From: Bacteroidota bacterium
GTDB lineage: Bacteria; Bacteroidota; Ignavibacteria; UBA10030
Reading direction: 5' to 3'
NCBI GenBank assembly: GCA_035499415.1
Contig: DATJYV010000029.1
Coordinates: forward strand, 589 to 64,588
Length of the DNA: 64,000 nucleotides
Part shown: positions 32,887 to 58,808 of the stretch, piece after piece
Position numbering within the stretch: the first letter of the stretch is position 1
How the letters are laid out: the number at the start of each line of letters is the position of its first letter
Made by a program: the position numbers and the translations under genes
Notes under the pieces: generated by a model
Databases searched by the model: none
Told to the model about the DNA's origin: nothing
The model's input: the letters and a program-made list of their open reading frames with translations, nothing else

Positions 32887-32890
32887 GTTG

Positions 32891-39476: not shown

Positions 39477-39938
39477 TTACTCGGTGACCGTGTAGATTAT
39501 CTTGGGCGTTTCCTGTCCGAGGGTCGACCGGGGAAAATCATAGTCGACATCGATGGTACGGGCCGAAGAGGCATCGCCGCCCGGCGAGAGCGTAATCGAT
39601 TCCCCGCGGGCGACCAACTGTTGAACCGTGACGGTTTGCATTGATGTCCGGGTTTCAACCGTCATGCGCTGCGAGGTGCCGCGATCCAAATCAGCCGTGA
39701 CCTTTGTGGATTGGGAGGGTGACCCTTGAAGCTCGAGAGATGCCCGAACGCCTTCCACAGCGCCGGAGCCCGCAAGCGGAATTGCCCGGGCGTTGCTCAG
39801 AGGGTTGATGACGAGCCGATGAGAGATGCTGACGCCGAAGACCACCTGCTGAACTGCTGAAGAGCGGACCTGACCGTGCGAATCCTGGACGATTCCGGCG
39901 GTTAACATGATCAAGAGTATGGATTTTCGGCAGCTCAC
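39477..39938 (-). CDS. Small secreted Thr/Ser-rich protein, fimbrial-subunit-like (family member 1)
   Basis: 153 aa. N-terminal signal-like segment. C-terminal beta-strand IIYTVTE. 1-nt spacing to the neighbouring gene. Confidence 0.4.
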   Translation of the reverse strand: MSCRKSILLIMLTAGIVQDSHGQVRSSAVQQVVFGVSISHRLVINPLSNARAIPLAGSGAVEGVRASLELQGSPSQSTKVTADLDRGTSQRMTVETRTSMQTVTVQQLVARGESITLSPGGDASSARTIDVDYDFPRSTLGQETPKIIYTVTE

Positions 39939-39939
39939 G

Positions 39940-40497
39940 TTAGTCCGTCAAAGTCAAGGTTACGAGACGTTCGTCTCTGTCGATTCCACCGACGCCGGAA
40001 CCTGCGACAAAGGTGTATCGGATCGACTGGTCTCTGTCGCTCCCCCTGCCGATCCCGGTCACGACATCAACAGGTACGAGGGCCGCTGAAATGTCGACAT
40101 CGCCAACGCTGCTTGCGCGTCCCGACGCGAGGTTGATCTTGAGCCGGGTTCCACTCGGCATGCTTGAGTTGATCGAGGCAACGATTTTCACATTATCGAG
40201 ATTTGTCGCTATGCTGTATTGCGAATGCTGGTCGGAAACGCTTACGTCTTCGCCCGCGTAGACCTTTTGCACCATGAGAGGCGCAGGATTTCCCGTCACT
40301 CTCAGCACTGCTATCGGCCGGACCTCGACCGTTACGATCTGCTTCACGGAGCTGTGAATCGGCTGCGGGAATGCGACCGAAATGATTGACAGGAGGGAGA
40401 GCCCTATGAACGGAAGTCTCGTCAAGGGATGCGATCGATGAGGCAAGAACGCTAAAGATGAAGCGATTGTCAAGTTTGCAATTGGCGCCGGTGGCAT
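39940..40497 (-). CDS. Small secreted pilin-like subunit (family member 2)
   Basis: The C-terminal half (...SVGDVDISAALVPVDVVTGIGRGSDRDQSIRYTFVAGSGVGG..RLVTLTLTD) parallels the 46205/46758 paralogues. The signal peptide is LPFIGLSLLSIISVAFPQ. The start is an ATG (MPPAP) or a TTG further in. Confidence 0.45.
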   Translation of the reverse strand: MPPAPIANLTIASSLAFLPHRSHPLTRLPFIGLSLLSIISVAFPQPIHSSVKQIVTVEVRPIAVLRVTGNPAPLMVQKVYAGEDVSVSDQHSQYSIATNLDNVKIVASINSSMPSGTRLKINLASGRASSVGDVDISAALVPVDVVTGIGRGSDRDQSIRYTFVAGSGVGGIDRDERLVTLTLTD

Positions 40498-40681
40498 GTT
40501 CGATCTTGGGCGAATCATGACCACAGGAAGGACAACAACCATGCCCTCCCGCCAGCTCACGCCGCGAAGGAGCAACGTCGATAACTAATTGCCAATAAGG
40601 ATGTTGGAGAGAGGTGATTCGAAGGGCTGGAAGATGGAGGGATGATCGAATTGTAGTTTCTACAATTCCACAGCTATCAGC

Positions 40682-43600
40682 TCACTGCTCGTGCCCTACT
40701 GACTTGCAGATAGCTTCAGCGGCAGCGCGCGTATTGAATTTCCCGGTAATGACCCGGTAGCGAATCCCAAGGTTGGGGATGTTCACTCGGTCGACAAAGA
40801 CTTTGCGTCCCAGGATCTTTCCCATATGCGACCCTTGGGACTGTGCCTTGGCGCGCGTTTTCCAGGACGATATTTGGACCATAAACTTCTTTGAGGGCCT
40901 ATCGAAGAATATAAGGCAAGGACCGGGCTCGTCCATCTGCGCCTTCGGCTCCTTGACTTGTTCCTGGGGAGCAGGTTGCGGCGCGTTCTCGGGTTTTTCC
41001 GGTTCTATCACCCCTTGCTGGATGATTTTGATGATCCGTTTGCGTGGTAGAATTTTGAAATCGCCCTCCGCGTGAGTTCCGGCCTTCAGCTCCAGGGCAA
41101 GCGAATCCGGTTCCATGCGATGATAGTCGGGAATATCCCCCCCTTCAATTCTGAGTGTCCAACTTCCGGGTCGCAGGTCCCCGAAAACGTACCTCCCGCG
41201 ACTGTCCGTCACGCGTCTGTGAACCTCATCCCCCTGGTATAACGCCATGAAGACTCCGGCCCTTGCTTCCTTCTCGCGATACACCGTTGCACCCAAGGAA
41301 TCCGAAGGTGCCTCCTCGTTCACTTCATACAAAACGACGGTCCCCGATACCTGCGCACTTCGTGTGACGTTGATCTGAACAGGCGTTTCCTCTCCCCCAC
41401 GTACCTCGACTTCGAGCGGCATCGGCTGGAGCGTCACGCGGTCGAGCCCGATGCTCTCTTTGTCGACCTGAACATAGATCGGCCCCGGTTTCACGCCCGG
41501 CAGGTAGAATTCTCCGTTCCCGTCGGTCACTGAAGCCGATTCTCCCGCGTTCACGAGAATATTGGGCAAGCCCACTCCCGTCTCGCCGACGACCCGGCCC
41601 CGCAACGACCCGACCGATCCAATGCGGGCGATGGGGACGTTCAACGGAATGGCATATTCAAGAAGATATGCCGTTTCGCGCGGCGTCACCGCCGGCGTGA
41701 GAAGATTCTGCCGCGCCCGGAGCGTGATCTTGTGGTTGAAGGGGAAAATATGTTCAAGCGAGAATTCGGACAACGTGCTCGTTTGTGGCGTTGCACTGTT
41801 CACCCTGCTGCCAAAAATGTTGAATTGGACCTGCGTCGCCTCCCCAAAAAGCACCCATGCCGATAAGCTGGCCGAGAGCCGCTCTTCTACTTCTCCCGTG
41901 TAAATATCCTGGTCGTTTGAGTACTCGACGGAAGCGCTGTAGTTCTGCGCGGCCGTAGGACGCACCGACGAGAATAGGGATACGTGCTGGTATGGATAAT
42001 TCTTCAGCGCGAGCTTGTCCTCGATGACGCCGTATTCGGAATTCCCGTTGATACTCACGCCGGCGAAATTGAAACCGACCCGCATCTGAAACGTGTTTTC
42101 GCTTCGCCGGTACTTCGGATTTTCCAGCAGATCATCCTGTCCGTCGTAGTGGTAGTAGAAGGACACAAGGTCAAAGTACGAAAGGCCAAGCTGGTAGAAT
42201 TGGTCGCGGGGAGCGTATATTTGATTCGTGTCGCGCGCAAGATTCCGTTCTTCGTCCCGAAAATAGGTTTCGAGCCGGATCGTCTTCGAGATTTGATACG
42301 AAATGCTGCTTGATTTGAAGCTCAGGTCGCGGTAGTATCCTCCGAAGTTCGTCCCTGCATCGATATACCGGATATCGTAGGCGAGCGACGGCTCTGTGCC
42401 GTTGAATCGGAGGGCAACTGCGTCATCGCTCTTCCCTTCCATGGCACCGCGGCCGTATTCGACGTCGACGCTGGAGTTGGTGAATGGATGCGACAGTCCC
42501 CGTAACGTGTAGAGGTCGCTCGAGTATTGATCCCTTCGGTTGAGGTAGTTGGCGCCAAGCTCGTAATCGGGGGAAAATTGATAGCTCACGAACCCTCCGC
42601 CTTCATCCTGCCGCTGGTCGATCCATCGGGTTTTGTCGTACAATCCTCCCACAGAGAACCCGGCGACCGTCGTTCTTGCGCCCGCCCCTGTCGCAAACCG
42701 TCCGCTCTCGGTCAGGGGAGAAAGCGTATAGTTCATGTCCCCGAGCTGCAGTTCCGTCGCACTGTTCACGTACGACAGGTAATATTCATCACGCAAGCCC
42801 AGAGAGGAAATCGATTGCGTCTCCGGTCCCCGCGCGAGGAATGAAAATTTGTCGTCCCGTTTCTCTGACAGACTCCCATAGCCGGATACTTCGAACTGCG
42901 TGGACCGCGCATCCTGCTCGCCCACACCCCGAAGCTTGAGCTGAATGGGATACTCTACGAACTGTTCTTCTCCCTGCGATTCCTGGGAAACAACGTCGGT
43001 CACGACCGAGGCACTCACGGCAACCGTGGAGTCCTGCCTCGAAGTCGCGATGAGCTGAAGGGTTTGATGGACTTTTCCCGCCCCCTTGTCCGTTACGACG
43101 GAGACCGGAATTTCGCGCGTGTCGCGCGGATTGAGTGCGATAACGGGGTCCGGGACCTTCGTCGCGTATCCCTCCGAAGACCTGGCTTCAAGGGTTACCG
43201 TCACCGGAGTGTTTCCGGCGTTCGTCAGGTCGAACGTTGCCGTAAAGGACCGTCCCCCAATGACAAATCGGGGCGCGTCGATGGGTTCGATTTTCAGGAG
43301 GTAAATCGTCTCCACTTTCACGGTTATCTCGGCAGCGGCCTCGTGCGCGGGCGTTGCACGGTCTTTCGCCAGATACCGGAGACGATAGAGTCCCCCCGGT
43401 ACTTCTCCGGGAACTGCAAGGGTCAGAATCCGCGCGTCGTTGGCGCCGGCTTCGAGCGTGAACTGCGACTCGGGAGTCACCAGCCGCCACTTCGTCGGAA
43501 CCTGTACCTGGGGGTCGAAGGTCTGCGTGGAGCCGGTTCGATTCGTGACGACCACGCTGAAGGAAACGATTGAGCCCGGCTTGACCGACAAGATCTCACG

Positions 43601-43732
43601 CGTCCCCGGAACGACGTCAATCTCCCCCTGCGCGCGCGAGAGACGCAGCTGACCGGTCATTGCGACCGCGAGCCCCAGAAAAAAAAACATCCGGCCGTGT
43701 CTGACCGGATGATGTCGTGTCGGTCTCCTCAA
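40682..43732 (-). CDS. Large outer-membrane, usher-like assembly protein: N-terminal Ig-like (CARDB-like) domains, central beta-barrel-like region, two CarbopepD_reg-like domains, C-terminal SPOR peptidoglycan-binding domain
   Basis: 1016 aa. TTG start with a charged n-region, or ATG at M15. The central aromatic-alternating strands are GLSYFDLVSFYYHYDG and FQMRVGFNFAG. GRVVGETGVGLPNILVNAGESASVTDGNGEFYL and VSGTVVLYEV..VTDSRGRYVFGDLRPGSWTL are transthyretin-like folds. The C-terminal FMVQISSWKTRAKAQS...YRVITGKFNTRAAAEA is a SPOR motif. The printed sequence appears 1 nt short somewhere within this gene (the track length is a multiple of 3, hand-counting is not). Confidence 0.55.
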   Translation of the reverse strand: MRRPTRHHPVRHGRMFFFLGLAVAMTGQLRLSRAQGEIDVVPGTREILSVKPGSIVSFSVVVTNRTGSTQTFDPQVQVPTKWRLVTPESQFTLEAGANDARILTLAVPGEVPGGLYRLRYLAKDRATPAHEAAAEITVKVETIYLLKIEPIDAPRFVIGGRSFTATFDLTNAGNTPVTVTLEARSSEGYATKVPDPVIALNPRDTREIPVSVVTDKGAGKVHQTLQLIATSRQDSTVAVSASVVTDVVSQESQGEEQFVEYPIQLKLRGVGEQDARSTQFEVSGYGSLSEKRDDKFSFLARGPETQSISSLGLRDEYYLSYVNSATELQLGDMNYTLSPLTESGRFATGAGARTTVAGFSVGGLYDKTRWIDQRQDEGGGFVSYQFSPDYELGANYLNRRDQYSSDLYTLRGLSHPFTNSSVDVEYGRGAMEGKSDDAVALRFNGTEPSLAYDIRYIDAGTNFGGYYRDLSFKSSSISYQISKTIRLETYFRDEERNLARDTNQIYAPRDQFYQLGLSYFDLVSFYYHYDGQDDLLENPKYRRSENTFQMRVGFNFAGVSINGNSEYGVIEDKLALKNYPYQHVSLFSSVRPTAAQNYSASVEYSNDQDIYTGEVEERLSASLSAWVLFGEATQVQFNIFGSRVNSATPQTSTLSEFSLEHIFPFNHKITLRARQNLLTPAVTPRETAYLLEYAIPLNVPIARIGSVGSLRGRVVGETGVGLPNILVNAGESASVTDGNGEFYLPGVKPGPIYVQVDKESIGLDRVTLQPMPLEVEVRGGEETPVQINVTRSAQVSGTVVLYEVNEEAPSDSLGATVYREKEARAGVFMALYQGDEVHRRVTDSRGRYVFGDLRPGSWTLRIEGGDIPDYHRMEPDSLALELKAGTHAEGDFKILPRKRIIKIIQQGVIEPEKPENAPQPAPQEQVKEPKAQMDEPGPCLIFFDRPSKKFMVQISSWKTRAKAQSQGSHMGKILGRKVFVDRVNIPNLGIRYRVITGKFNTRAAAEAICKSVGHEQ
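43678..43687. repeat. Homopolymeric A9/T9 tract inside the 5' end of the usher-like gene (codons FFF)
   Basis: cagAAAAAAAAAcat on the plus strand, i.e. ATG TTT TTT TTT CTG on the coding strand. Unusual in a 60% GC genome. Coordinates approximate. Confidence 0.8.
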
Positions 43733-43741
43733 GGCAGTCTT

Positions 43742-44569
43742 TCAAAACTTCAGGACGTACTCTGCGCCGAAAATGTCGTCCCCTCCCGCATCGACCACGA
43801 CGCGCGCCTTGTAATTGCCGGGGGTGACGCTGCTGACGTCGATCGTCTGCCGCACGGATGTCCCTGGATAAATGCGGTATTTTACTCCCTCGAATTTACC
43901 GCGCGCAACCCCTTTCTCATCGAACAAATCGACGGTGACATCGGGACGCATGACGAGCTCCCCCGTATTTTCAATATCGATCTGGAGCGCCCTCTTCCCT
44001 TCTTCCTTCGCAACCAGCTTGGCGCCGATGAAATTAACTTTCTTCGTGCCGGTGTTCGCAATCGACGTGGCGATCTGGATCCCGTACCGGATCGTCTGCA
44101 TGATCCCCATCTGCGCCTTCGTGTCCTTTTGTCGAAGGGAAGACTCGGCGGAGCCCTTCTGAATTCCCTCGACCATCAGCATGCTCCAGTAGGTTCCAAT
44201 CAGGGGCTTCCCTGTCAGATCCTTGGGGACAGCCACCGAATAGTCGATCGCCATGGTGGACGCCGGCGGCAGGGTCAGGTAGGCGGGGCTGAAGGTCACC
44301 CACTTTGCGTTCGAGCGGGGCATCGACCCGGGATCACCGTAGTTATTCGTTCCGGAATAATGAAACGTGTAGTCCGTTTGATAAACCTTCGCTTCCTGCG
44401 GCTCGTTCGTGTCGTTCCGGATGATGATTGAACCCGTATACGTTTCGCCAGGCCTCGCCATCTTGTCCTGGCTGAGCTCGCCGATGACCGAAACTTGTCC
44501 CAAGAGAAAATTCGGGACAAGGAAAAGGAAAAAGAGGGCTGTTCGTTTGAGGAGGAGGGAGAGAGTCAT
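43742..44569 (-). CDS. Periplasmic Ig-fold protein, candidate chaperone-like partner of the small subunits
   Basis: Signal peptide MTLSLLLKRTALFFLFLVPNFLLGQ (the longest ORF starts at 44647). Two beta-sandwich-like halves. The N-terminal I.I.N....P pattern is reminiscent of PapD-like N-domains. Same reading frame as the usher-like gene, separated by TGA plus 3 codons. Confidence 0.35.
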   Translation of the reverse strand: MTLSLLLKRTALFFLFLVPNFLLGQVSVIGELSQDKMARPGETYTGSIIIRNDTNEPQEAKVYQTDYTFHYSGTNNYGDPGSMPRSNAKWVTFSPAYLTLPPASTMAIDYSVAVPKDLTGKPLIGTYWSMLMVEGIQKGSAESSLRQKDTKAQMGIMQTIRYGIQIATSIANTGTKKVNFIGAKLVAKEEGKRALQIDIENTGELVMRPDVTVDLFDEKGVARGKFEGVKYRIYPGTSVRQTIDVSSVTPGNYKARVVVDAGGDDIFGAEYVLKF

Positions 44570-44576
44570 AATGTTC

Positions 44577-45029
44577 CTATTGAGCGACGAGTGTGTAGGT
44601 GATTGTATGGACATCGTTGCCGAGTTCGGCGCTGTTGCCTTGTTCAAATGTTGCCGATGCGGAGTACTTCAGGGTCGCTGTGGCATTCGTTGTCCCCGTG
44701 GCGGGGATGTTCGTGATGAAATCGGCGGCAGCCATTCCGTTCGTCAATGTCACGGCAGGGGACGCAACTCCTTTCGTCGGACTCACGGCAACCACAGAAA
44801 GCGAAAAACTCTGGCCCGAGCAAACGGTTGCCACAGTGACCTTTGAGATGGCCGTTTGCTTCTTGTATGTCAAGGTGCAGGAAGAATTTGTCACAGCGGC
44901 GGGTTCAGAGCCCGCGACTCCGGTAGTTATAGAGAGCGTCTTATTACCTCCGGAAATGCTGATTTGTTGAGCTGAGGCGCTTGACAGAAGCAATGCGACT
45001 GCGGGTAAGAGGAGCAAGAGCTTGTGCAC
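44577..45029 (-). CDS. Small secreted pilin-like subunit (family member 3)
   Basis: GTG start gives the signal peptide MHKLLLLLPAVALLLSSASAQQ (the longest ORF starts at 45143). Two Cys. C-terminal strand HTITYTLVAQ. Confidence 0.45.
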   Translation of the reverse strand: MHKLLLLLPAVALLLSSASAQQISISGGNKTLSITTGVAGSEPAAVTNSSCTLTYKKQTAISKVTVATVCSGQSFSLSVVAVSPTKGVASPAVTLTNGMAAADFITNIPATGTTNATATLKYSASATFEQGNSAELGNDVHTITYTLVAQ

Positions 45030-45033
45030 GGCT

Positions 45034-45537
45034 TTATTGGGTCGCGATAGTGAACGTGATCGTGTGCGAATCCGTCCCCGTTCCCTGGGAGGCAAGGGCA
45101 ACGGCAGTATATTGGAGCGTGCAACTTCCTGTGCTTCGGCCAAGATTGGTCAGAAAATCCTGGGCGGTGTGTGTGATGGTGACCTGGGAAGCTGCGGTCC
45201 CGACCGTGGGGTTCAGGGCAACGAGTTTGAGTGCAAAGAGTTGTGTTGTCAGATTCGTTTGCACCGTAACCTTTTTGGTACTGCTGTTGATGCCCCATTG
45301 GAGGGATGTTGCCTGGTTAGTGGCGCTCATGGTGTTCTGGCCCGCCACGGCGTTGGCCCCCGTAATTGTGAAACTGACTGCGCCTCCGGTTACCGTCACG
45401 TTGGTAATCGTCGAAACCGTGACCGTGATCGTGTGGGACGCTGATCCATACGTCTGACCCTTGGCAAGAAACAGAGGAAGGATGAAAAATATCCCCAGCA
45501 ATATCGGGCGGTTGAATCGAGGTCGAAGGGATCCCAT
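45034..45537 (-). CDS. Small secreted pilin-like subunit (family member 4)
   Basis: Signal peptide MGSLRPRFNRPILLGIFFILPLFLAKGQ. Thr/Val-rich strands. C-terminus SHTITFTIATQ. The SCTLQYTAVALASQG motif is shared with member 5. Confidence 0.45.
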   Translation of the reverse strand: MGSLRPRFNRPILLGIFFILPLFLAKGQTYGSASHTITVTVSTITNVTVTGGAVSFTITGANAVAGQNTMSATNQATSLQWGINSSTKKVTVQTNLTTQLFALKLVALNPTVGTAASQVTITHTAQDFLTNLGRSTGSCTLQYTAVALASQGTGTDSHTITFTIATQ

Positions 45538-45610
45538 ATATTCGCGAAACACGTTCGGAGCCGGTGAAATATAGCCCTCTAATCGAGGATTATCAAGTTG
45601 AGACAGTGCC

Positions 45611-46120
45611 TCAACTCCCTGTAATAGTATACGTAATCGTATGCGTCTCGCTCCCGACCCCCTTTTCAAGGGTTGCGGCCCCCGTGAATTGAAGCGTGCA
45701 GCTTCCCGCCGAGCGACTCACCCCAACGATGAGGTCGTGAGTCGAGTTGTCAGAAAACACCACGTCGCTCGAACTGACCCCCGACCCTGAACTGACGTCC
45801 TGGGCCGACAAGCGAAGGTCGAATTTTGAACCCGACCGATCGCTTTCGGCCGTAATCTTTCGATTCTCCCCGTTACTCGTCCAGACCAACCTGGTAGCGC
45901 CGCTCATCGCGGGCGAAGGGTTGGAAGTTTCCGGGTCGAAATCGGTGATCTTGAGCGTAACCGGACCGCCTGAGATATCTATCGTGTTCAGTTCGAGGAC
46001 TTGAAGCCGAATCACCTGCGTGACCGAAGCACGCTGGGCGAAAAGTGTTGCGGACCCTGCTGCGAAAATCAGGAGGGTCTGCAGTGCTCTTCGTCTTATG
46101 TCGTGTCGTTTGGTGTTCAT
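45611..46120 (-). CDS. Small secreted pilin-like subunit (family member 5)
   Basis: Signal peptide MNTKRHDIRRRALQTLLIFAAGSATLFAQ. SCTLQFTGAATLEKG motif. C-terminus THTITYTITGS. Confidence 0.45.
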   Translation of the reverse strand: MNTKRHDIRRRALQTLLIFAAGSATLFAQRASVTQVIRLQVLELNTIDISGGPVTLKITDFDPETSNPSPAMSGATRLVWTSNGENRKITAESDRSGSKFDLRLSAQDVSSGSGVSSSDVVFSDNSTHDLIVGVSRSAGSCTLQFTGAATLEKGVGSETHTITYTITGS

Positions 46121-46204
46121 CGCTCGAGGCCTCGAAGATAGAAAAACCGTAGCGGCGACAGCTGGAAAACGCACGCTACGGCTTTCTCTCTCCTCCAGAG
46201 ATTC

Positions 46205-46705
46205 TTAGTTCGTCAACGTTAAGGTGACTACTTTTGCTGTGGATGAAAGCGTACCGGCAGAAGCGTTCGCACCGAATGAGTAGGTGATCATCTGGCCGGC
46301 ATCCGCGCCTCTGTTGATACCTGTAACGACGCTCAAAGCACTGCCGGATGTTGCGTTGGAGATATCGACCGCTCCGGCGCTGGTCCCTTTGGAGCTTGCA
46401 AGGTTAATCGAAAGCGAGTAACCGGACGAAAGGGCGGCATCGAGATTCGCCGTGATCTTCACCGTATTCGCGTAGTTCTGCGTGATGCTGTAGGTCGTTG
46501 AATTGTCCGTGACGCTCGTGAGGTTATCCGATCCAGGAGTTCCGGTCGTGATCGTGAGGGCTCCCGGGTTTCCCGACGTCGAGATCTTGTAGATTGCGTT
46601 GACGGCGAGGTTCAGATTCTGCGTTGCCGTGGCTTGTGCGACTGCCGACTCGACGAGCAGAGAGCTGGCGGCGACAAGCGCGAGGGTGATGATGGTCTTT
46701 TTCAT
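46205..46705 (-). CDS. Small secreted pilin-like subunit, candidate major subunit (paralogue A)
   Basis: 166 aa. Signal peptide MKKTIITLALVAASSLLVESAVAQA. The mature N-terminus ATATQNLNLAVNAIYKIS has an alternating donor-strand-like pattern. C-terminal VVTLTLTN. About 75% identical to the next gene. Confidence 0.5.
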   Translation of the reverse strand: MKKTIITLALVAASSLLVESAVAQATATQNLNLAVNAIYKISTSGNPGALTITTGTPGSDNLTSVTDNSTTYSITQNYANTVKITANLDAALSSGYSLSINLASSKGTSAGAVDISNATSGSALSVVTGINRGADAGQMITYSFGANASAGTLSSTAKVVTLTLTN

Positions 46706-46757
46706 GATGGTATCCGTTCGATGAAGGTTGAGGTTTGGTGGTTTTTCAATTCGGTTG

Positions 46758-47252
46758 TTAGTTCGTCAGCGTCAACGTTACGGTCTTGGCCAGCGATGAC
46801 AATGTTCCGGCAGAAGCCGTTGCGGCGAAGTTGTAGGTAATGACCTGGGCTGCATCCGCACCGCGCTGAATGTTCGTGACCATGTTGACGGCGCTGGACG
46901 ACGTCGCATTGGAGATGTCGACACTTCCCGCACTCGTGCCTTTGGTGCTCGCAAGGGTCAACTTGAGCGTATAACCAGCAGCAAGGGCTGCGTCAAGGTT
47001 CGCCGTGATCTTCACAGTATTACCATAGTTCTGTGTAATGCTGTAATTCGTTGATGCATCGGAAACGGACGTCAGGTTGTCGCTCCCGGCTGTGCCTGTC
47101 GTGATCGTGAGCGGGCTCGGGTTGCCGGACGTCGCTATTTTGTAAACAGTGTTGACTGCAAGCGTGACGCTCTGAGTCGCAGTGGCCTGAGCCAGCAGAG
47201 TCTGAACTCCTGCGAAACCGAGAAGAGAGAGGGTTGCGATTAACTTCTTCAT
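46758..47252 (-). CDS. Small secreted pilin-like subunit, candidate major subunit (paralogue B), first gene of the operon
   Basis: Start trimmed to MKKLIATLSLLGFAGVQTLLAQA, preceded by an AAGGAG RBS. The mature ATATQSVTLAVNTVYKIA...TVTLTLTN parallels paralogue A. Confidence 0.5.
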   Translation of the reverse strand: MKKLIATLSLLGFAGVQTLLAQATATQSVTLAVNTVYKIATSGNPSPLTITTGTAGSDNLTSVSDASTNYSITQNYGNTVKITANLDAALAAGYTLKLTLASTKGTSAGSVDISNATSSSAVNMVTNIQRGADAAQVITYNFAATASAGTLSSLAKTVTLTLTN

Positions 47253-47379
47253 GACGAACTCCTTTTGTCTGGATTGGTGGATCGTTTTGTTTCCCGTATA
47301 ACCATCAATCCCCATGCCAATCCAGTTTTTGAACGAAAAATGGCGTTTTCCCAGATACGATTTGTTTTTCGTGAATTGA

Positions 47380-47399
47380 AATGATACATTTGTATCATT
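47380..47399. promoter_or_regulatory. Perfect palindrome AATGATACA-tt-TGTATCATT in the divergent promoter region
   Basis: Read directly in the AT-rich spacer between the pilin-like operon (minus) and the HisKA/sigma54-activator genes (plus). Candidate enhancer or operator site for the adjacent sigma54 activator. Confidence 0.4.
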
Positions 47400-47551
47400 A
47401 TAGGATTATGCTGTATTATAAAGCAAAAATGCCTCAATACCAAAATATGATAGAACTATTTGACTCTTTTTGAGACATGTCACCAGCTATCAGAGTAGCA
47501 ACATACCACAAATTCTGGCCATTATGTAATGATTTCTGCGGTCTGATCTCC

Positions 47552-47567
47552 TGGCATATCGATTGCT
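47552..47567 (+). promoter_or_regulatory. Sigma54 (-24/-12) promoter TGGCAT-N5-TTGCT
   Basis: cTGGCATatcgaTTGCTg gives the exact GG-N10-GC spacing. It lies about 36 nt upstream of a GGAGG RBS and the ATG at 47603. Confidence 0.55.
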
Positions 47568-47602
47568 GTCTTCAATTGAAACAAACTGCCGGAAGGAGGA
47601 TT

Positions 47603-47893
47603 ATGGCGCAGAGTAAGCTCAGAATCATGTCTCCGGAAGAAGCGGTACGGGAGTACCATGTTCGGACAGAAATCGCGACCCGGTTGTCGCACGAGTTCCG
47701 GACTCCGCTCACTTCCATCATCGGCTACGCAGAGACCATCATGTGCAGTCCGGACTTAACAGCAGAACAGCGAGACGAGTTTGCAGCTCTTATAAAGAAG
47801 GAGGGGGAACGGCTCGTGAGACTTGTGACCTTGATTGTCGAACAATCGATTCAGGGTTCGGCGTCACAGTCCGATCCATCCATATTTAAATGA
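47603..47893 (+). CDS. Free-standing HisKA (DHp) domain protein, 96 aa, with no ATP-binding domain
   Basis: MAQSKL...RLSHEFRTPLTSIIGYAETI carries a canonical H-box with the phospho-acceptor His, and the protein ends after the four-helix region. The longest ORF (from 47477) has no RBS. The stop lies 20 nt before the activator gene, in a different frame. Confidence 0.55.
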   Translation: MAQSKLRIMSPEEAVREYHVRTEIATRLSHEFRTPLTSIIGYAETIMCSPDLTAEQRDEFAALIKKEGERLVRLVTLIVEQSIQGSASQSDPSIFK

Positions 47894-47912
47894 CACGAAA
47901 GAGAGTCTTCCC

Positions 47913-49298
47913 ATGCCATCAAACCATCTCATATATATTGTCGACGACGAGACATCCATCGCCAAGCTGCTGGAAGTCTGGGTCAGCCAGAAATGGGGGT
48001 ACCGAGCGCGGCTCTTTTCGGACGGCGAAACGTGTCTTCATGCCCTCGATGAGGGGGCGGACCTGGTTCTTCTCGACCTGATGCTGCCCGGTATCGATGG
48101 TGTCGCCGTGCTCCAGGAAATCAAGCGCCAGAAGCCGGAGCTTCCTGTCATCGTGCTGTCCGCCCAGGCAAAGATCGAGGTTGCCCTTCAGACATTGAAA
48201 TTAGGCGCAACGGACTATTTCAGCAAACCCGTTGACCTCCCGAAGCTCGAAATCGGCATCAAGAATGCCCTGCGACTTGCGGACTTGACGCGGGAAGTCG
48301 AGCGTCTTCGTCAAGACGCCGAAACGAAGGTCCACTTCGATCATATTGTGGCCCAGAGCGGCGAGATGGCTGACGTTTTCAAGCTCGTCTCAAAGGTCAA
48401 GGAGAGCGACATTCCGGTACTTATTCTCGGCGAGAGCGGAACCGGAAAGGAGCTCATCGCCCGGGCCGTCCATTTCAACAGCGGCCGCAAAGACAGACCG
48501 TTCGTTGTCGTCAACTGCGCTTCGATTCCCAAAGACCTTCTCGAAAGCGAGCTCTTCGGGCACGAGCGTGGAGCGTTCACCGGCGCCATCCAGCGCAGGG
48601 TCGGAAAATTCGAACAGGCAAACGGAGGGACGATCTTCCTCGACGAAATTGGGGAGCTCGACCTGAGCCTGCAGTCAAAACTCCTGCGGGCGATTCAGGA
48701 AAAGCAGTTCAACCGAGTCGGGGGGAATGATGTGATCACGACGACCGCGCGTCTTATTTCCGCGACAAACCGGGATTTGCGTGAGGAAGTAAAGCAGAAG
48801 CGATTCCGGGAGGATCTGTACTTCCGTCTCTCGACGTTTCCCGTCATGCTCCCGCCTCTCCGGGAAAGAAAGTCGGATATCGTCCTTCTTGCCGAACACT
48901 TTCTGCGGCAGTTTTCCGAGGAGCAGAAGAAACCCCACCTGCGGTTTTCACGAAAGGCGCTCGACGACCTTTACAACTACCCGTGGCCCGGAAATGTGCG
49001 CGAGCTGGAGAATGCAATCCAACGGGGCGTCGTCCTTGCCGACGCGGCGGAATTGACCGAGCGCGAACTGCCCCTCTCAGTCCAGACATATTCGGGGTTT
49101 GAATCGACGGAGCGTCCCGCATTTTCGTTCGCCAAGAGCAACGACGTCGTCGTCCCTTTCGAAAAGTTGAAGGAGGACGCGATAAGGAACGCGCTGCGCA
49201 TCACCCACGGGAACATCGTCCAGGCGGCCCAACGCCTCAAGATCGGCCGGGCGACGCTTTACCGCTTGATGCAAAAATACAAAATCGAGGCGGACTAG
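47913..49298 (+). CDS. Sigma54-dependent response regulator (NtrC family: REC - AAA+ sigma54-interaction - Fis-type HTH)
   Basis: REC with LLDLMLPGIDG. Walker A GESGTGKE. GAFTGA motif (ESELFGHERGAFTGA). C-terminal HTH (IVQAAQRLKIGRATLYRLMQKY). Start trimmed to MPSNHLIYIVDDE (the longest ORF starts at 47835). Confidence 0.85.
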   Translation: MPSNHLIYIVDDETSIAKLLEVWVSQKWGYRARLFSDGETCLHALDEGADLVLLDLMLPGIDGVAVLQEIKRQKPELPVIVLSAQAKIEVALQTLKLGATDYFSKPVDLPKLEIGIKNALRLADLTREVERLRQDAETKVHFDHIVAQSGEMADVFKLVSKVKESDIPVLILGESGTGKELIARAVHFNSGRKDRPFVVVNCASIPKDLLESELFGHERGAFTGAIQRRVGKFEQANGGTIFLDEIGELDLSLQSKLLRAIQEKQFNRVGGNDVITTTARLISATNRDLREEVKQKRFREDLYFRLSTFPVMLPPLRERKSDIVLLAEHFLRQFSEEQKKPHLRFSRKALDDLYNYPWPGNVRELENAIQRGVVLADAAELTERELPLSVQTYSGFESTERPAFSFAKSNDVVVPFEKLKEDAIRNALRITHGNIVQAAQRLKIGRATLYRLMQKYKIEAD

Positions 49299-49367
49299 CG
49301 GCGTACACAACAAGGGCTCCTGCGAATGAGGAGCCCTTGTCTCAGTCCAAGCGACGATTGCTCGCGG

Positions 49368-50096
49368 TCAGGACCAGGAACCCGTGCCCGTCTGGGTTCC
49401 CTCTGAATTGTAGACAGTCCATTGGCCGGAACCGTTTGCGACCCAGGTTGCCTTGAATACGAGAACCGCGTTATTGTACACGTCTACTTCGCCCGTCTTG
49501 TCCGACCGATTGATGACGATAAGCTTCGCGGTCACCGAACTCCCCGTCGCATCGTACGTCGAGAGGGTTCCTGTTTCGCTCGTCACAGATCCGTTCACCC
49601 CTGCTGCCCAGACATAGTCGGCGGCAAGAGTTGTCGCATTGTCATTGTAGACCTTCCATTCACCGCTCTTACCGTCCGCGCTGGACGTACCGTTGAGAAA
49701 TGTCCAATTGTTGTACGTCACGCCGCTGCCGGTCTCCGTCCCGTTCACCGACCACTTCCACGCATAGCTCCCGTCCGACTGCTTGGTCGCGGTGAATGTT
49801 ACGGTGACCCCGTTCGCCGTGACCGTCCACGTCCACACGCCGCCGTTATCCTTTGCCGAGCCGGCAGCAAATCCCGCAAAAAATGCGGACGAATATGCAT
49901 TCGCCGAGAGTGCGTACGAAGTCGTTAACTCCGCATACGTGTCTGTCGATGTGGTTGTCGGCCCGACAAATGTCACGCTCGGTATGCCGGGAGCCGTCCC
50001 CGTGCTCGATGTCGGCGATGAGCTGTTCTTCGAGCAACCCGAAGAACAAACTGCAATCGCAAGAACGGTAAAGCCGTAAAGAATTGATCGTTTCAT
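49368..50096 (-). CDS. Lipoprotein, Thr/Ser/Gly-rich beta-rich, unknown function
   Basis: Signal peptide plus lipobox (AIAVCSSGC). 242 aa. Repeated W/Y-containing strands. Confidence 0.45.
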   Translation of the reverse strand: MKRSILYGFTVLAIAVCSSGCSKNSSSPTSSTGTAPGIPSVTFVGPTTTSTDTYAELTTSYALSANAYSSAFFAGFAAGSAKDNGGVWTWTVTANGVTVTFTATKQSDGSYAWKWSVNGTETGSGVTYNNWTFLNGTSSADGKSGEWKVYNDNATTLAADYVWAAGVNGSVTSETGTLSTYDATGSSVTAKLIVINRSDKTGEVDVYNNAVLVFKATWVANGSGQWTVYNSEGTQTGTGSWS

Positions 50097-50414: not shown

Positions 50415-51074
50415 CTAGGAAACCAAACCGCTTTTGATCGCTTTGGCCACGGCTTCCGCCCGGGAGCGGACGTGGAGCTTTGCGTAGATATTACGGAGGT
50501 GGAAACTCACGGTATTCACGCTGACGAAAAGTTTGTCCGCAATCGCCTTGTACGTATAACCGTCGATGAGGGCCTGGAGAACCTCGAGCTCCCTTTTGGA
50601 GAGCGTTGAAGAGAGACTGTCGGCCTTCTGCGTCTGGAAATAGGCGAGCACCTTGCGTGCCACCTCGGTCGACATCGGGGCCCCGCCGGCGTATGCATCC
50701 CGTATGGCGGCCAACAGAGCTTCCGGAGAGGTCTTTTTCAGGAGATATCCCACCGCCCCCTGCCGGAGCGATTGAAATATCTTTTCGTCGTCGCTGTGCA
50801 CCGTCAACATCAGACACTGAATATTGGGATACCGCCGCTTCACAATTTCCACGCACTCAATGCCCGATTTCTCCGGAAGACCGATATCCATCAAAACGAC
50901 ATCCGGCGGATCGTCTTCGAGGATGGCTAACGCATCGCCACAGCTCCCATGGGCGCCGGTGCATGCAAATCCGGGGGAATGCTCAATGACCCAGCGAAGG
51001 CCATTGCGGATTTCAATATCGTCATCGATGATTGCGACCCGGATTGCGGGAATTTGGCCGTCGTGTTCCTGCAT
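50415..51074 (-). CDS. NarL/FixJ-family response regulator (REC plus LuxR-type HTH)
   Basis: REC (IRVAIIDDD...VVLMDIGLP) and a C-terminal LuxR HTH (LSKRELEVLQALIDGYTYKAIADKLFVSVNTVSFHLRNIYAKL). Confidence 0.85.
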   Translation of the reverse strand: MQEHDGQIPAIRVAIIDDDIEIRNGLRWVIEHSPGFACTGAHGSCGDALAILEDDPPDVVLMDIGLPEKSGIECVEIVKRRYPNIQCLMLTVHSDDEKIFQSLRQGAVGYLLKKTSPEALLAAIRDAYAGGAPMSTEVARKVLAYFQTQKADSLSSTLSKRELEVLQALIDGYTYKAIADKLFVSVNTVSFHLRNIYAKLHVRSRAEAVAKAIKSGLVS

Positions 51075-51098: not shown

Positions 51099-51134
51099 TC
51101 GGATGAATCAACTACGTACATGCGTAGTTTCATC
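51099..51134. promoter_or_regulatory. Extended palindrome GGATGAA-tc-AACTACG-tacatg-CGTAGTT-TCATCC containing AACTAC-N8-GTAGTT (copy 2)
   Basis: Located between the sensor-kinase stop (51130) and the LuxR-RR start (51074). Same 6-N8-6 motif as at 50340. Confidence 0.4.
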
Positions 51135-54093
51135 CCCGAACCGGAAATGTCGCCTCGACCCGGGTCCCTTCGTGGACGTGCGAACTCAATCGAAACGTCC
51201 CGCCCGCCTCTTCCGTCCGCTTCCGCATGTTTGCCAGTCCGTTCCCTTCGTTTTTTTTCTCCGCGCTCAAACCTACCCCGTTATCACTGACGACAACGGC
51301 GAGGCTTGAGCCGGTGCGATGGAAGGAAATGGAGGCGGCGCTGGCCCTTGAATGACGGGCGACGTTCGTAAGAGCTTCTTTCGACAGGAGCAGCAGACTC
51401 CGCATCCCTTCGGAGCTCATTCGTATTTCCCCAACCCCCTCCCCCACGTCAAAATACAACCGGATGTTCCTGCCTTCGCACATCTCATAGGCAAAGGACC
51501 GAAGACGCTGGACCAGCCGCTCGAGGGAGTCATGCGTGGGGTCGATGGACCAGACGACATCGCTCATGTTTTCGATAAGCTCACGGGCGGTTTCCGAGAC
51601 TTTTTCGAGGGATTCCTTGACCGTCGTGCCATCTCCCGGCAGCGATGAACCCTCTTCGCCCGCAGAAACCTGCCGTCGCACGACATCGGACAGAATGGCG
51701 ATGCGTGTCAATCCCGACCCGATATCGTCGTGCAAATCGGTCGCAATGCGCGAACGAATCCGCTCGATCTCTAGAAGACGCTGCAGACGAAGTCGCACGG
51801 CAATCACGATCGTCGTTAAGAGCAAGATCGAAAAGGCGGCGACGAACCACGGCCGGCGCCAGATCGGGGGGACGATGACGAACCGGATCGTTGCCGGATG
51901 CGCGCTGACCACCCCGCTGTTTTTCACCGCTCGAATTTCGAGCGCGTATGAACCCGGAGCAAGTGCGCCAAAAAAGAAATGGCGATCCTTCCCGGGCGGC
52001 TGCCAGTTGTCATTTGAGCCGAGCAGACGGTACTGGTACCGAAGCTCACCCTCTTCCCGCAGGCTGACTCCCGCAACTTCCACCGTGCAGTTATTTTCAT
52101 CGCTGCTGATTTCCAGTATTCCCGACGTTGGCTTGTCTCTCCCGTTAACCTGGAATTGGCTGACCACGATCGGCGGGGGAATGGTGTTCGGCGCGTCATG
52201 CTCAAAATCGTAGACCGACAGCCCCGCCTCGGAGACGTACCAGAATTTGTGCGAACCCGTCTCGCCGCATCCATACACCGGTGAGCCGGTCATTTCCTTC
52301 ACCGTCTGAAAAACCCGCGTCGCCCGGACCAACGACTGCACTCCCATTTGCGTCCCGACCCAGATCGATCCCTGTTCGCTTGCGGCAATGCACCAGACTG
52401 CTGTGCTGAGCAATCCTTCCTTGAGCGATACCGGGACGAACGACGAGTCGGATAAGTACGCAAGCCCGCCATATCTCATGCCAATCCACAGACGACGGTC
52501 GGGTGTCTCGATGATCGCACGGATGGAAGTATTGGGGAGCCCGTCTGCCAGCCCGAAGCGATGCACCGGCCCCATCCGTTTTTCTCCCGCGCGGATGAGG
52601 CCCAGGCCTTCCGAATAACCTCCCAACCATATATTCCCGGCCCGGTCTTCACAGAAGGCCCGAATGGAGCCGTCGAACAAACCGTTTTCAACGGTGAGTT
52701 TCCGCACCAGGGAAAAGTTATTGTCGGGATCCAGAACCCGGATACCAAGGTTACCGTCAAGACTGATCCAGAGCAAACCCTCCATGTCAACACGAATGAA
52801 AAGGGGATGCGCATTCGGATATTGAGCGCCCGGTCGGATATGAACCAGCGGAGTGAGGGAGGAGAATCCGCCAGCGCCCGGCTTGATTGCAAACTCGGAT
52901 ATGCTCCCGTCGCGGAGGGACACCCAAAGATGGTTTTGCCGGTCGAACGTAACCGTCCATGGGGCTGCTTCGCCTTTTCGTGTCTCATTCGGGTGGATGA
53001 GCTTCCTCCATCCGCCGGTTGAATCCTCACGGAATTCCCCGATTCCCCGTTCAGTACACAACCAGATGTGGCCGCCGGAATCCACCGCTGCGGTGGCGTT
53101 GTTCGGTGCAAACGGAATGACTCCCACCGGATAGGTTCTGATATTCCGATTCGTCAGCTTCGCCAATCCGGAGGAGGAACAGGCAATCCAAAGGTCCCCT
53201 TCGGAATCGACAGTCCCCGCGATCATGCCGGGCGGCAATCCGTTCTTCCCGGCATAGTGCACCATGTTCATTCTACCGTCCCGCACTCCCTCAACCAGGA
53301 AAAGGCCCTGCGCAGCCGCAATCCAGACGGCGCCCGATTTGTCGAGGGCGATGAATGAATGGCCGCCGCTTCCGGTGGAGAGCGTCCGTCGAACACCCTC
53401 GTTCTCAAAAAGCAGTACCCGGCCGGCGGAGGTTGCGAGCCATTCGATCCCCTTCCCGTCCGCGCAACCCGTTTCGATCAACTCATTCTTCCGCAGGCTC
53501 AGCGGGAGTACGCGCGGAGGGAGTTTGGGATTTGTGCAGACATGAATCGAGGTGGAGCCAACAATCCACACCGTCGAATCGCTCGCTCGAAGCATCGTCG
53601 GGATGTCGCCCCTTATTTCCTCCGCACGGAACGGAACGAAGGCGGTATCAACAAGAACAAAGACCCCCCTCGTTGTTCCCGCCCAGACCCGCCCGCTCCC
53701 GTCTTCGGCGATCGATTCGACGATATTCGTCCACGGGTTCCTTCCCAGGCGAAAGGTCTGAAAACGTCCGCCGGAGAATCTGCTCACTCCGCCGCCGTTT
53801 GTCCCGACCCACAATACGCCGGGCTGCGATCGGCTTTCGATGATACATGTGACGCGGCTGAGCGCAAGGCCGTCTGCAACGGTGTAATTCCTGAACGATG
53901 TGCCGTCATAGGACGTAAGGCCCTCGTTGCTTCCGATCCAGAGGAGCCCGCCGGAATCGACGGCAAGCGCGAGCAGAAAGTTGGACAAGAGTCCGTCGCG
54001 GGAAGTATATCGGCTGAACGGCAGAACCTGCGTCCGGGCGGTGAGGAGGCAGAGGGCAAGTGCTGCCGTGAGGACAGACGTTCGTTTCATCAC
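51130..54093 (-). CDS. Ligand-sensing hybrid-architecture histidine kinase (periplasmic two-component-regulator beta-propellers plus Y_Y_Y domain - TM - HisKA_3 - HATPase_c)
   Basis: 987 aa. Signal peptide. Many Reg_prop-type repeats (GLLWIGSNEGL, VLWVGTNGGG...). TM (WFVAAFSILLLTTIVIAV). HisKA_3 H-box ATDLHDDIGSGLT. ATPase. Cognate to the downstream NarL-type RR. Confidence 0.8.
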   Translation of the reverse strand: MMKRTSVLTAALALCLLTARTQVLPFSRYTSRDGLLSNFLLALAVDSGGLLWIGSNEGLTSYDGTSFRNYTVADGLALSRVTCIIESRSQPGVLWVGTNGGGVSRFSGGRFQTFRLGRNPWTNIVESIAEDGSGRVWAGTTRGVFVLVDTAFVPFRAEEIRGDIPTMLRASDSTVWIVGSTSIHVCTNPKLPPRVLPLSLRKNELIETGCADGKGIEWLATSAGRVLLFENEGVRRTLSTGSGGHSFIALDKSGAVWIAAAQGLFLVEGVRDGRMNMVHYAGKNGLPPGMIAGTVDSEGDLWIACSSSGLAKLTNRNIRTYPVGVIPFAPNNATAAVDSGGHIWLCTERGIGEFREDSTGGWRKLIHPNETRKGEAAPWTVTFDRQNHLWVSLRDGSISEFAIKPGAGGFSSLTPLVHIRPGAQYPNAHPLFIRVDMEGLLWISLDGNLGIRVLDPDNNFSLVRKLTVENGLFDGSIRAFCEDRAGNIWLGGYSEGLGLIRAGEKRMGPVHRFGLADGLPNTSIRAIIETPDRRLWIGMRYGGLAYLSDSSFVPVSLKEGLLSTAVWCIAASEQGSIWVGTQMGVQSLVRATRVFQTVKEMTGSPVYGCGETGSHKFWYVSEAGLSVYDFEHDAPNTIPPPIVVSQFQVNGRDKPTSGILEISSDENNCTVEVAGVSLREEGELRYQYRLLGSNDNWQPPGKDRHFFFGALAPGSYALEIRAVKNSGVVSAHPATIRFVIVPPIWRRPWFVAAFSILLLTTIVIAVRLRLQRLLEIERIRSRIATDLHDDIGSGLTRIAILSDVVRRQVSAGEEGSSLPGDGTTVKESLEKVSETARELIENMSDVVWSIDPTHDSLERLVQRLRSFAYEMCEGRNIRLYFDVGEGVGEIRMSSEGMRSLLLLSKEALTNVARHSRASAASISFHRTGSSLAVVVSDNGVGLSAEKKNEGNGLANMRKRTEEAGGTFRLSSHVHEGTRVEATFPVRG

Positions 54094-58349: not shown

Positions 58350-58808
58350 TTACTGTTGCGCGCTCTTAATACTTCCCGCCGGGGGCTCGTTTGTCAAGGC
58401 CCAGAAGACGCCCAGCCGCTTGACGGCGTTGACAAATTCGCCAAAGCTCACGGGCTTCACCACATAGGAATTGACCCCGAGGTTGTAACTTCGCGCGAGG
58501 TCTTGCTCCTCACGCGAAGAAGTGAGCATGACGACCGGCACCGATTTCAGGGACGGGTCCGATTTTACCTGCCGCAATACTTCCAAGCCGTCCACTTTCG
58601 GGAGCTTCAGGTCGAGAAGGACGACCGCCGGATTTCCGGGCTGGCGGGATTGGAAACTCCCCTTTGCAAAGAGGTAATCGAGCGCCTGCGCTCCGTCTTC
58701 CAGCACCACGACTTCGTTTGCGAGGTTGAATTCCCTCAAAGCTTCGAGGGTGAGTTCGACGTCGTTGGGATTATCTTCAACGAGCACGATCGATTTAAGG
58801 TCTTTCAT
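58350..58808 (-). CDS. Single-domain CheY-like response regulator
   Basis: 152 aa REC (IVLVEDNPNDVELT...VVLLDLKLPKVDG...VKP). Confidence 0.8.
   Translation of the reverse strand: MKDLKSIVLVEDNPNDVELTLEALREFNLANEVVVLEDGAQALDYLFAKGSFQSRQPGNPAVVLLDLKLPKVDGLEVLRQVKSDPSLKSVPVVMLTSSREEQDLARSYNLGVNSYVVKPVSFGEFVNAVKRLGVFWALTNEPPAGSIKSAQQ

Follow-up and report, generated by a model that had tools for sequence, protein, structure and literature searches.

A stand-alone HisKA protein beside a sigma-54 activator in uncultured Bacteroidota: recurrent loss of the catalytic domain and a possible phosphatase role

Introduction

What is the role of a gene that lies directly beside a response regulator gene and encodes only the dimerization and phospho-acceptor (DHp) part of a histidine kinase? 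This question is raised by a 64,000-nucleotide (nt) stretch of DNA from a Bacteroidota bacterium (positions 589 to 64,588 of contig DATJYV010000029.1, assembly GCA_035499415.1; hereafter the window), in which a 96-amino-acid (aa) HisKA protein with no catalytic ATPase domain is encoded just upstream of a sigma-54 activator of the NtrC type. As judged by its position and by alignment, the 96-aa protein is orthologous to a complete 242-aa kinase that occupies the same place in related gene cassettes, and the same comparison indicates that the catalytic domain has been repeatedly degraded or deleted in this family. We propose, with about an even chance of being right, that the protein is a functional, selected remnant of a sensor-less cognate kinase that acts as an ATP-independent phosphatase of the activator and thereby provides negative feedback. 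In a weaker form, the conserved residues argue at least for an engagement with the activator that depends on its phosphorylation state.

Results

A protein reduced to the DHp domain

The gene and its partner have the following features (all coordinates are those of the window).

47594..47599, + strand: AGGAGG, a Shine-Dalgarno-like sequence 3 nt 5' of the ATG (AAGGAG is conserved in the relative at locus L001)
47603..47893, + strand: 96-aa stand-alone HisKA/DHp protein (open reading frame (ORF), Pfam HisKA only, AlphaFold2 (AF2) hairpin, Foldseek, purifying selection)
47913..49298, + strand: NtrC-type response regulator / sigma-54 enhancer-binding protein, 461 aa (Pfam, translation, alignment)

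Read from the sequence, the 96-aa ORF extends from ATG 47603 to the stop codon TGA 47891-47893, and a gap of 19 nt separates this stop from ATG 47913 of the activator gene, which lies in a different frame; a preliminary description of the locus was right about the frame and gave the distance as 20 nt, which does not hold. The sole Pfam domain of the product is HisKA (PF00512; residues 21-76, E value 1.8e-12), with a score of 47.5 bits against the Pfam gathering cut-off of 26.9. Its H-box, S29-H30-E31-F32-R33-T34-P35, fits the H-E/D-x-x-T/N motif as defined in PMC3510030. The AF2 monomer model consists of helix 11-48, a loop and helix 54-84, forming an antiparallel two-helix hairpin (predicted local distance difference test (pLDDT) 81). 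The best Foldseek matches of this model are the DHp domain of HK853 in complexes with RR468, followed by the DHp domains of SrrB and WalK, and the sequence matches among solved structures are kinase DHp domains including those of HK853, RetS and DivL. Two such hairpins would associate into a homodimeric four-helix bundle.

Pfam detected no HATPase_c domain in the 96-aa protein, and the ORF ends 66 residues past the histidine. The protein is not a complete class I histidine kinase by definition: it has no N, G1, F and G2 boxes. ATP-dependent autophosphorylation in cis would be excluded because the catalytic domain is absent. No remnant of such a domain was found in any frame downstream of the gene, or in the spacers that follow other DHp-only genes. 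The identical protein, always followed by the 461-aa activator, is present on at least nine contigs from six independent samples (ENA, JGI, Logan). Thus the earlier assignment of the ORF as a genuine HisKA-only protein without a catalytic ATPase is borne out by its Pfam content, by these contigs and by the missing remnant. The NCBI entry for the protein is HTP79088.1, from a Bacteroidota metagenome-assembled genome (MAG), and NCBI already labels such ORFs 'histidine kinase dimerization/phospho-acceptor domain-containing protein'.

Four states of the kinase-like gene in a conserved cassette

The gene belongs to a cassette found in uncultured Bacteroidota, which comprises a divergent operon of secreted subunits, back-to-back sigma-54 promoters with palindromes, the kinase-like gene and the activator gene. 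The divergent operon includes several secreted subunits of 155-175 aa, a 275-aa protein and a ~1000-aa CarboxypepD_reg/SPOR protein. The genes flanking the cassette differ between genomes, which indicates that the cassette is the conserved unit.

A word-indexed protein search returned only two proteins, and exhaustive and profile searches were needed to find the relatives. The exhaustive profile-free search revealed both short relatives of 93-110 aa and proteins of ~245 aa that have the same N-terminal signature followed by HATPase_c, and genomic look-ups placed the two forms at the identical position of the cassette. A metagenome scan baited with the major subunit of the divergent operon added 79 further loci. 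A contig scan with the generic pattern [LIV]SHE[FLI]RTPLT gave only unrelated kinases among the matches listed. A search for short relatives beside NtrC-type genes had been suggested in the preliminary description, and DHp-only orthologues of 93-110 aa do occur in the same cassette in several divergent genomes.

Profile searches and alignments across ~30 distinct cassettes distinguish four states of the kinase-like gene (the author handles L and P denote loci and proteins).

Class A: canonical 242-aa sensor-less kinase with H-E-x-x-T and N, G1 and G2 boxes (L012/P0006, L011/P0016)
Class A variants: H-N-x-x-T (L098/L103) or H-G-x-x-T (L155)
Class B: catalytic fold kept, G1 box DxGxG lost (L109/P0010, L164, L121, L149, L167, L168)
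Class C: deletion of ~10 residues over G1/F, with SHALRTPLT (L115, L153, L123, L104, L095) or SDALRTPLT (L100/L101)
Class D: DHp only, 93-110 aa (the window, L001, L008, L010, L133, L122/L127/L129, L013, L173, L175)

A later profile search extended class D by P0284, P0285, P0291, P0293, P0296, P0303, P0306, P0308, P0301 and P0340; among these, P0296 and P0306 were confirmed to lie in the cassette.

Even in the class A proteins of L012 (P0006) and L011 (P0016), a mere ~20-25 residues precede the DHp domain, and a sensor domain is absent. The docking surface RTPLTSIIG[FY]AE and a Thr or Ser at the fourth position after the histidine (H+4) are kept in all members of the four classes, and all activators keep the acidic pair, the acceptor Asp and the Ser, Tyr and Lys positions of the receiver. 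Several lineages have Ala, Asn or Gly instead of the Glu that directly follows the histidine (H+1). In L100/L101, represented by contigs from two samples, the phospho-acceptor His itself is replaced by Asp and the catalytic domain is degenerate; the adjoining activator retains its receiver Asp.

Recurrent loss of the catalytic domain

In a neighbour-joining tree of full-length activators, the window stands beside the class A locus L012 (71% bootstrap), and L008 beside the H-N-x-x-T kinases L098/L103 (94%). The DHp-only locus L129 falls, together with classes B and C, into the second major clade (100%); in a shorter alignment it groups with L010 (100%). A tree built from 235 residues of the activator with more taxa agrees with the full-length tree. 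The DHp-only cassettes thus take three positions in the tree, and since a lost domain could not be regained, these positions would require at least two, and probably three, independent losses of the catalytic domain.

Possible function of the DHp-only protein

In HisKA kinases, the acidic residue (E/D) at H+1 is needed only for the kinase activity and the T/N residue at H+4 only for the phosphatase activity (Willett and Kirby, PMC3510030). That paper also summarises earlier work in which the isolated DHp domains of EnvZ and NtrB proved sufficient to act as phosphatases, both in vitro and in vivo; phosphatase activity likewise persists in HK853 when its catalytic domain is missing (discussed in PMC7005713). 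In the family described here, the features of a kinase decay while the phosphatase residue, the docking surface and the receiver chemistry remain invariant; therefore the function common to all members would most simply be dephosphorylation of the activator. The DHp hairpin would dock, as a four-helix-bundle dimer, on the phosphorylated receiver of the activator, and Thr34 at H+4 would support its ATP-independent dephosphorylation. The phosphate on the activator would come from elsewhere, from a non-cognate kinase or from acetyl phosphate. The DHp gene and the activator gene would be co-transcribed from an activator-dependent promoter, so that the pair would combine positive autoregulation with a built-in negative feedback, limiting or shaping the expression of the divergent subunit operon.

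Several observations weigh against this proposal. The catalytic domain or bound nucleotide greatly stimulates the phosphatase activity of HisKA proteins (PMC3510030, PMC7005713), hence a bare DHp domain may be a weak enzyme. A pure phosphatase needs neither the His nor the Glu at H+1, and the presence of both residues in 16/16 complete DHp-only sequences thus hints that the histidine is still phosphorylated. No conserved gene for a phosphodonor was found in the cassettes compared, and no sensor input is apparent in any of the classes. Finally, the activator trees that suggest repeated loss are simple distance trees, with one relevant node at only 71%.

The retained His and Glu are the main reason to consider a possible, though rather doubtful, role as a phosphotransfer intermediate or as one half of a split kinase, in which H30 would be phosphorylated in trans and the phosphate passed to the activator. 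The phosphate could originate from a second kinase through its catalytic domain or be transferred back from a further receiver, and the protein would resemble Spo0B or ChpT without their pseudo-catalytic domain, or HK2 of Mycobacterium tuberculosis. Both residues are strictly kept in all DHp-only members, at an overall identity of 36-67%. The class B proteins, which keep the His and have no G1 box, resemble the phosphotransferases Spo0B, ChpT and PhyT (PMC5898713, PMC3433190). In addition, complete HisKA kinases are encoded by three genes of the window; one is a hybrid kinase with a C-terminal receiver (55664-58327) at a distance of 8 kb from the DHp gene, an arrangement seen in the window only. 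However, L100/L101 have Asp in place of the His and class C has lost the Glu, yet the gene and the receiver Asp are kept; phosphotransfer therefore does not appear to be the function of the family as a whole. The DHp regions of the other kinases in the window are unlike the 96-aa protein, no donor gene is conserved in the cassette, and its flanks vary among genomes. A gene for a catalytic domain only, as a split kinase would demand, is absent from both the related cassettes examined and the 64-kb window, where the profile matches just the three complete kinases.

The near-invariance of RTPLTSIIG[FY]AE in the four classes, even in members without the His, might also reflect binding that is independent of phosphorylation. 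The protein would then sequester or scaffold the receiver, as an anti- or co-activator, or form mixed DHp bundles that block other kinases in the manner of RetS and GacS; RetS and DivL are indeed among the sequence-related solved structures. We regard such a role as unlikely. The conserved Thr or Ser of catalytic type at H+4, and the His-Glu pair of the DHp-only class, would be superfluous for mere binding, the activator keeps all residues of the phosphorylation chemistry, and comparison with the kinases of the window identified no target kinase with a similar DHp domain nearby. The choice among the phosphatase, relay and decoy roles raised in the preliminary description is narrowed by these comparisons.

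Selection on the DHp gene

Comparison with a relative indicates that the 96-aa ORF is a genuine gene and that it evolves under purifying selection. The orthologue P0002 at locus L001 is 67% identical, with unchanged length, start, stop and spacer. The proportion of synonymous differences (pS) between the two genes is 0.79, that is, saturated, and the proportion of nonsynonymous differences (pN) is 0.21 overall and 0.146 in residues 21-82. In the DNA upstream of the gene, the identity of the two loci is 65% from the promoter onward and 36% before it, and the promoter, the ribosome-binding site (RBS), the stop position and the spacer are all retained in L001. The ratio of DHp-core divergence to activator divergence is 0.65 in pairs of DHp-only proteins and 0.62-0.67 in other between-class pairs; the equality of these ratios argues against relaxed constraint on the DHp-only proteins.

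A translated but drifting leftover of a deleted kinase gene is very improbable in the light of these data. The catalytic domain did go by deletion, and the C-terminal tail (residues 83-96) evolves fast, with a pN of 0.43 between the window and L001. But the start, stop and length agree with those of L001 despite saturated synonymous sites, the promoter and RBS of the gene are conserved, the rate of divergence equals that of the DHp domain in intact kinases, and DHp-only forms persist in several lineages with the H-box intact in all 16 complete sequences.

A full-length kinase broken by a frameshift in sequencing or assembly, against which the preliminary description had advised a check of the reads, is hardly credible at all and was rejected, since the identical ORF occurs in independent ENA, JGI and Logan assemblies, the activator gene starts 19 nt past the stop and leaves no space for a catalytic domain of ~150 aa, and the downstream frames have no similarity to such a domain.

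Two conserved sigma-54 promoters and the sites between them

The DHp-activator operon and the divergent subunit operon are separated by the following elements.

47304..47319, - strand: sigma-54-type promoter TGGCATGGGGATTGAT of the divergent subunit operon (sequence, relatives)
47380..47399, no strand: perfect 9+9 inverted repeat AATGATACA-TT-TGTATCATT, candidate second activator site (inverted-repeat scan)
47461..47477, no strand: candidate activator-binding palindrome TGACTCTTTTTGAGACA, 91 nt upstream of the + strand promoter (match to the family site)
47552..47567, + strand: sigma-54-type promoter TGGCAT-N5-TTGCT of the DHp-activator operon (sequence, relatives)

The + strand promoter consists of TGGCAT at 47552-47557 and TTGCT at 47563-47567, with GG at 47553-4 and GC at 47565-6, i.e. 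the exact GG-N10-GC spacing, and is located 35 nt before the ATG. The bare pattern TGGC-N7-TTGC is not above chance (one occurrence in 64 kb vs 1.7 expected), and the argument for a real promoter therefore comes from the comparison with relatives: exactly one TGGYAY-N5-TTG is present 5' of the kinase-like gene in 32/32 distinct upstream regions, with ~0.01 expected per region. The - strand promoter TGGCATGGGGATTGAT lies 52 nt before ATG 47252 and has TTGA as its -12 element, as do most relatives. Exactly one match on the opposite strand precedes the first subunit gene in 29/32 regions, and in two of the remaining three, L001 and L011, the sequence ends before this position. Of 55 distinct sigma-54-type promoters of the cassettes, taken from the window and from loci L008-L013 and L094-L172, 38 carry TTGA as the -12 element, compared with just five that carry the canonical TTGC, the + strand promoter of the window among them; TTGA may be a lineage-specific -12 preference.

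Between the two promoters, the palindrome TGTNTCA-N3-TGANACA (two mismatches or fewer) has 39 matches in 22 regions, compared with 0.33 in shuffled sequences. The matches favour two positions, one ~50-85 nt from the subunit promoter and the other, occupied in most cassettes, ~77-100 nt upstream of the promoter of the kinase-like gene. In the repeat at 47380-47399, which lies ~60-80 nt 5' of the - strand promoter, the half-sites are swapped relative to TGTATCA-N3-TGATACA, so that the family palindrome is turned 'inside-out'; the half-site 8-mers ATGATACA and CATTATGA each occur in 12/26 inter-promoter regions. Across the entire window, the pattern is no more frequent than chance would give (16 matches vs 15.8 expected, with three mismatches or fewer), and its significance derives from the comparative test only. 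Scans for sigma-70 promoters and terminators gave nothing informative, and Rfam contains no RNA family matching positions 46500-49500.

This arrangement is, in its predicted elements, the standard layout of an enhancer-dependent divergent promoter pair. Since two conserved sigma-54 promoters flank the palindromic sites, the activator is predicted to control both the subunit operon and its own operon. The sigma-54 promoter with exact spacing that had been noticed before the DHp gene is thus conserved in every upstream region compared, and the two suggestions attached to it, that the activator governs the divergent operon and that it is autoregulated from its own sigma-54 promoter, gain support from the conserved promoter on the - strand and from the palindromes between the two.

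The activator, the divergent operon and neighbouring genes

The activator has the Pfam domains Response_reg, Sigma54_activat, AAA_lid and, at the C-terminus, HTH_8. In its receiver, the acceptor Asp lies within LLDLMLP and is accompanied by the DD pair and by the Ser, Tyr and Lys positions; GAFTGA is present in its AAA+ domain. With this receiver Asp, the GAFTGA-bearing AAA+ domain and a Fis-type helix-turn-helix, the protein is by sequence a regulator of the NtrC type. It scores best against the AtoC, NtrC and ZraR models, yet below their equivalog cut-offs, and no named orthologue was assigned.

The genes of the divergent operon were delineated by ORFs, domain searches and homologue searches.

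46758..47252, - strand: first gene, 164-aa secreted major subunit of an uncharacterised family (homologue search)
39477..46705, - strand: span of the remaining genes of the operon, as follows
46205-46705, - strand: second major subunit
45611-46120, 45034-45537 and 44577 to ~45040, - strand: minor subunits
43742-44569, - strand: 275-aa protein
40682-43690, - strand: ~1002-aa protein with CarboxypepD_reg and SPOR domains
39940-40542 and 39477-39908, - strand: two more subunit-like genes

The two major subunits are 71% identical to each other, and the gene order of the operon recurs in L008, L173, L175 and the contig of P0006. At least 488 homologues of the first major subunit were found, all 'hypothetical', with named sources only among Bacteroidota or Ignavibacteriales MAGs. 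The protein matches no Pfam or NCBIfam family. Its AF2 model is poor (pLDDT 60) and a Foldseek search against the PDB gave nothing below E 0.04, so no credible fold could be assigned and the term 'fimbria-like', used for this operon in the preliminary description, is neither confirmed nor rejected.

The public gene calls place a 123-aa ORF at 44599-44970 on the + strand, overlapping the - strand ORF 44577-45143. The product of the latter is clearly homologous to the fifth subunit of L008 (156 aa), and the public call on the + strand is probably an error. Directly downstream of the subunit operon, 34192-39318 (-) encodes a 1708-aa protein with UDP-GlcNAc 2-epimerase, DUF2334 and GH42M-like domains, adjoined by a family-2 glycosyltransferase gene (32891-34312); the two may constitute linked polysaccharide or glycosylation machinery. 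The window is also rich in signalling genes (31795-32946, 55664-58327, 58805-60805 and 51130-54093, all on the - strand), the products being a REC-HisKA-HATPase protein, a REC-PAS x3-HisKA-HATPase-REC hybrid kinase, a PAS kinase and a Y_Y_Y/HisKA_3 kinase, the last accompanied by a LuxR-type regulator (50415-51074).

A separate family of HisKA-only proteins was observed in Pyrinomonadaceae (Acidobacteriota). These proteins of ~171 aa, exemplified by P0362 (L176, 6001-6516), have an N-terminal hydrophobic segment and are membrane-anchored orphans that do not lie beside a response regulator. Stand-alone HisKA proteins may be commoner than is usually assumed.

Discussion

Various aspects of the cassette can be compared with characterised systems. 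The DHp fragments of EnvZ (domain A), NtrB and HK853 are similar to the 96-aa protein in that they consist of a HisKA hairpin with H-E-x-x-T and no catalytic domain. They dephosphorylate their cognate regulators, of which NtrC is itself a sigma-54 activator (PMC3510030, PMC7005713). However, these fragments are laboratory truncations of bifunctional sensor kinases, whereas the family described here appears to be natural, selected and recurrent, and derived from a sensor-less kinase.

The phosphotransferases Spo0B, ChpT and PhyT are likewise derived from kinases by loss of the ATPase, keep the DHp histidine and act on response regulators (PMC5898713, PMC3433190). Our class B proteins share the Spo0B/ChpT layout of a DHp domain with a pseudo-catalytic domain, and the protein of the window has no C-terminal domain at all. 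In contrast to Spo0B, ChpT and PhyT, which work in a defined phosphorelay with a known upstream receiver, it has no donor gene conserved in the cassettes compared, and one lineage of its family has no histidine.

In the HK1/HK2 pair of M. tuberculosis, one gene encodes a phospho-acceptor half without an ATPase domain, and the ATP-binding half is reportedly encoded by the adjacent gene (Shrivastava et al. 2007). The two kinase genes of this system (HK1/HK2-TcrA, Rv0600c-Rv0601c-Rv0602c) lie beside one response regulator gene (PMC3544749, PMC9321153). Its regulator is of the OmpR type, whereas that of the window is a sigma-54 activator, and neither the cassette nor the window has a gene for a catalytic domain only. 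The split kinase Hik36/Hik43 was considered as a further parallel and set aside: it is CheA-type and thus not comparable.

The NtrB-NtrC, AtoS-AtoC and ZraS-ZraR systems, which are classical autoregulated sigma-54 operons, have the same arrangement of a kinase gene followed by an NtrC-type activator gene, with a sigma-54 promoter and upstream palindromes. They differ from the window in three respects: the partner here lacks both sensor and catalytic domains, the predicted target is an operon of secreted subunits, and the -12 element in this lineage is mostly TTGA. RetS and DivL also use a HisKA-type DHp domain beyond autophosphorylation, but both are large multidomain proteins in which a catalytic-like domain is retained, and RetS acts on the DHp domain of another kinase, for which no such partner is evident in the window.

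In the literature that we searched, no naturally occurring DHp-only protein has been characterised as the partner of a response regulator; the closest parallels are the degenerate kinases with a pseudo-catalytic domain and the HK1/HK2 pair of M. tuberculosis. The chemistry of the HisKA domain, the NCBI naming of such ORFs and other HisKA-only families are already known; what is new here, as far as the genomic comparison goes, is an orthologous series of graded and recurrent loss of the catalytic domain tied to a conserved sigma-54 circuit. We tentatively suggest, at somewhat less than an even chance, that this series traces a natural path from a bifunctional kinase to a minimal DHp protein, taken independently at least two to three times, and that the product of 93-110 aa belongs to a type uncharacterised in any organism, either a dedicated phosphatase for two-component signalling or a minimal dimeric His relay.

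It is a textbook assumption that the gene beside a response regulator encodes its kinase. Here the neighbour cannot be a kinase in most lineages, yet it appears to be still selected, with the docking surface and the phosphatase residue intact, and this calls for caution in the annotation of kinase-regulator pairs. The family provides a natural test of two ideas that have so far rested on engineered fragments, namely that the DHp domain alone suffices as a phosphatase and that residues of the H-box separate the kinase from the phosphatase activity. The two conserved sigma-54 promoters and the palindrome offer regulatory handles on an abundant uncharacterised subunit operon of soil and sediment Bacteroidota. 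If the suggested path to a dedicated phosphatase or minimal relay is real, the phosphate on the activator of a widespread secreted-fibre operon would come from a non-cognate source, and the genomic partner would do no more than 'edit' the activator.

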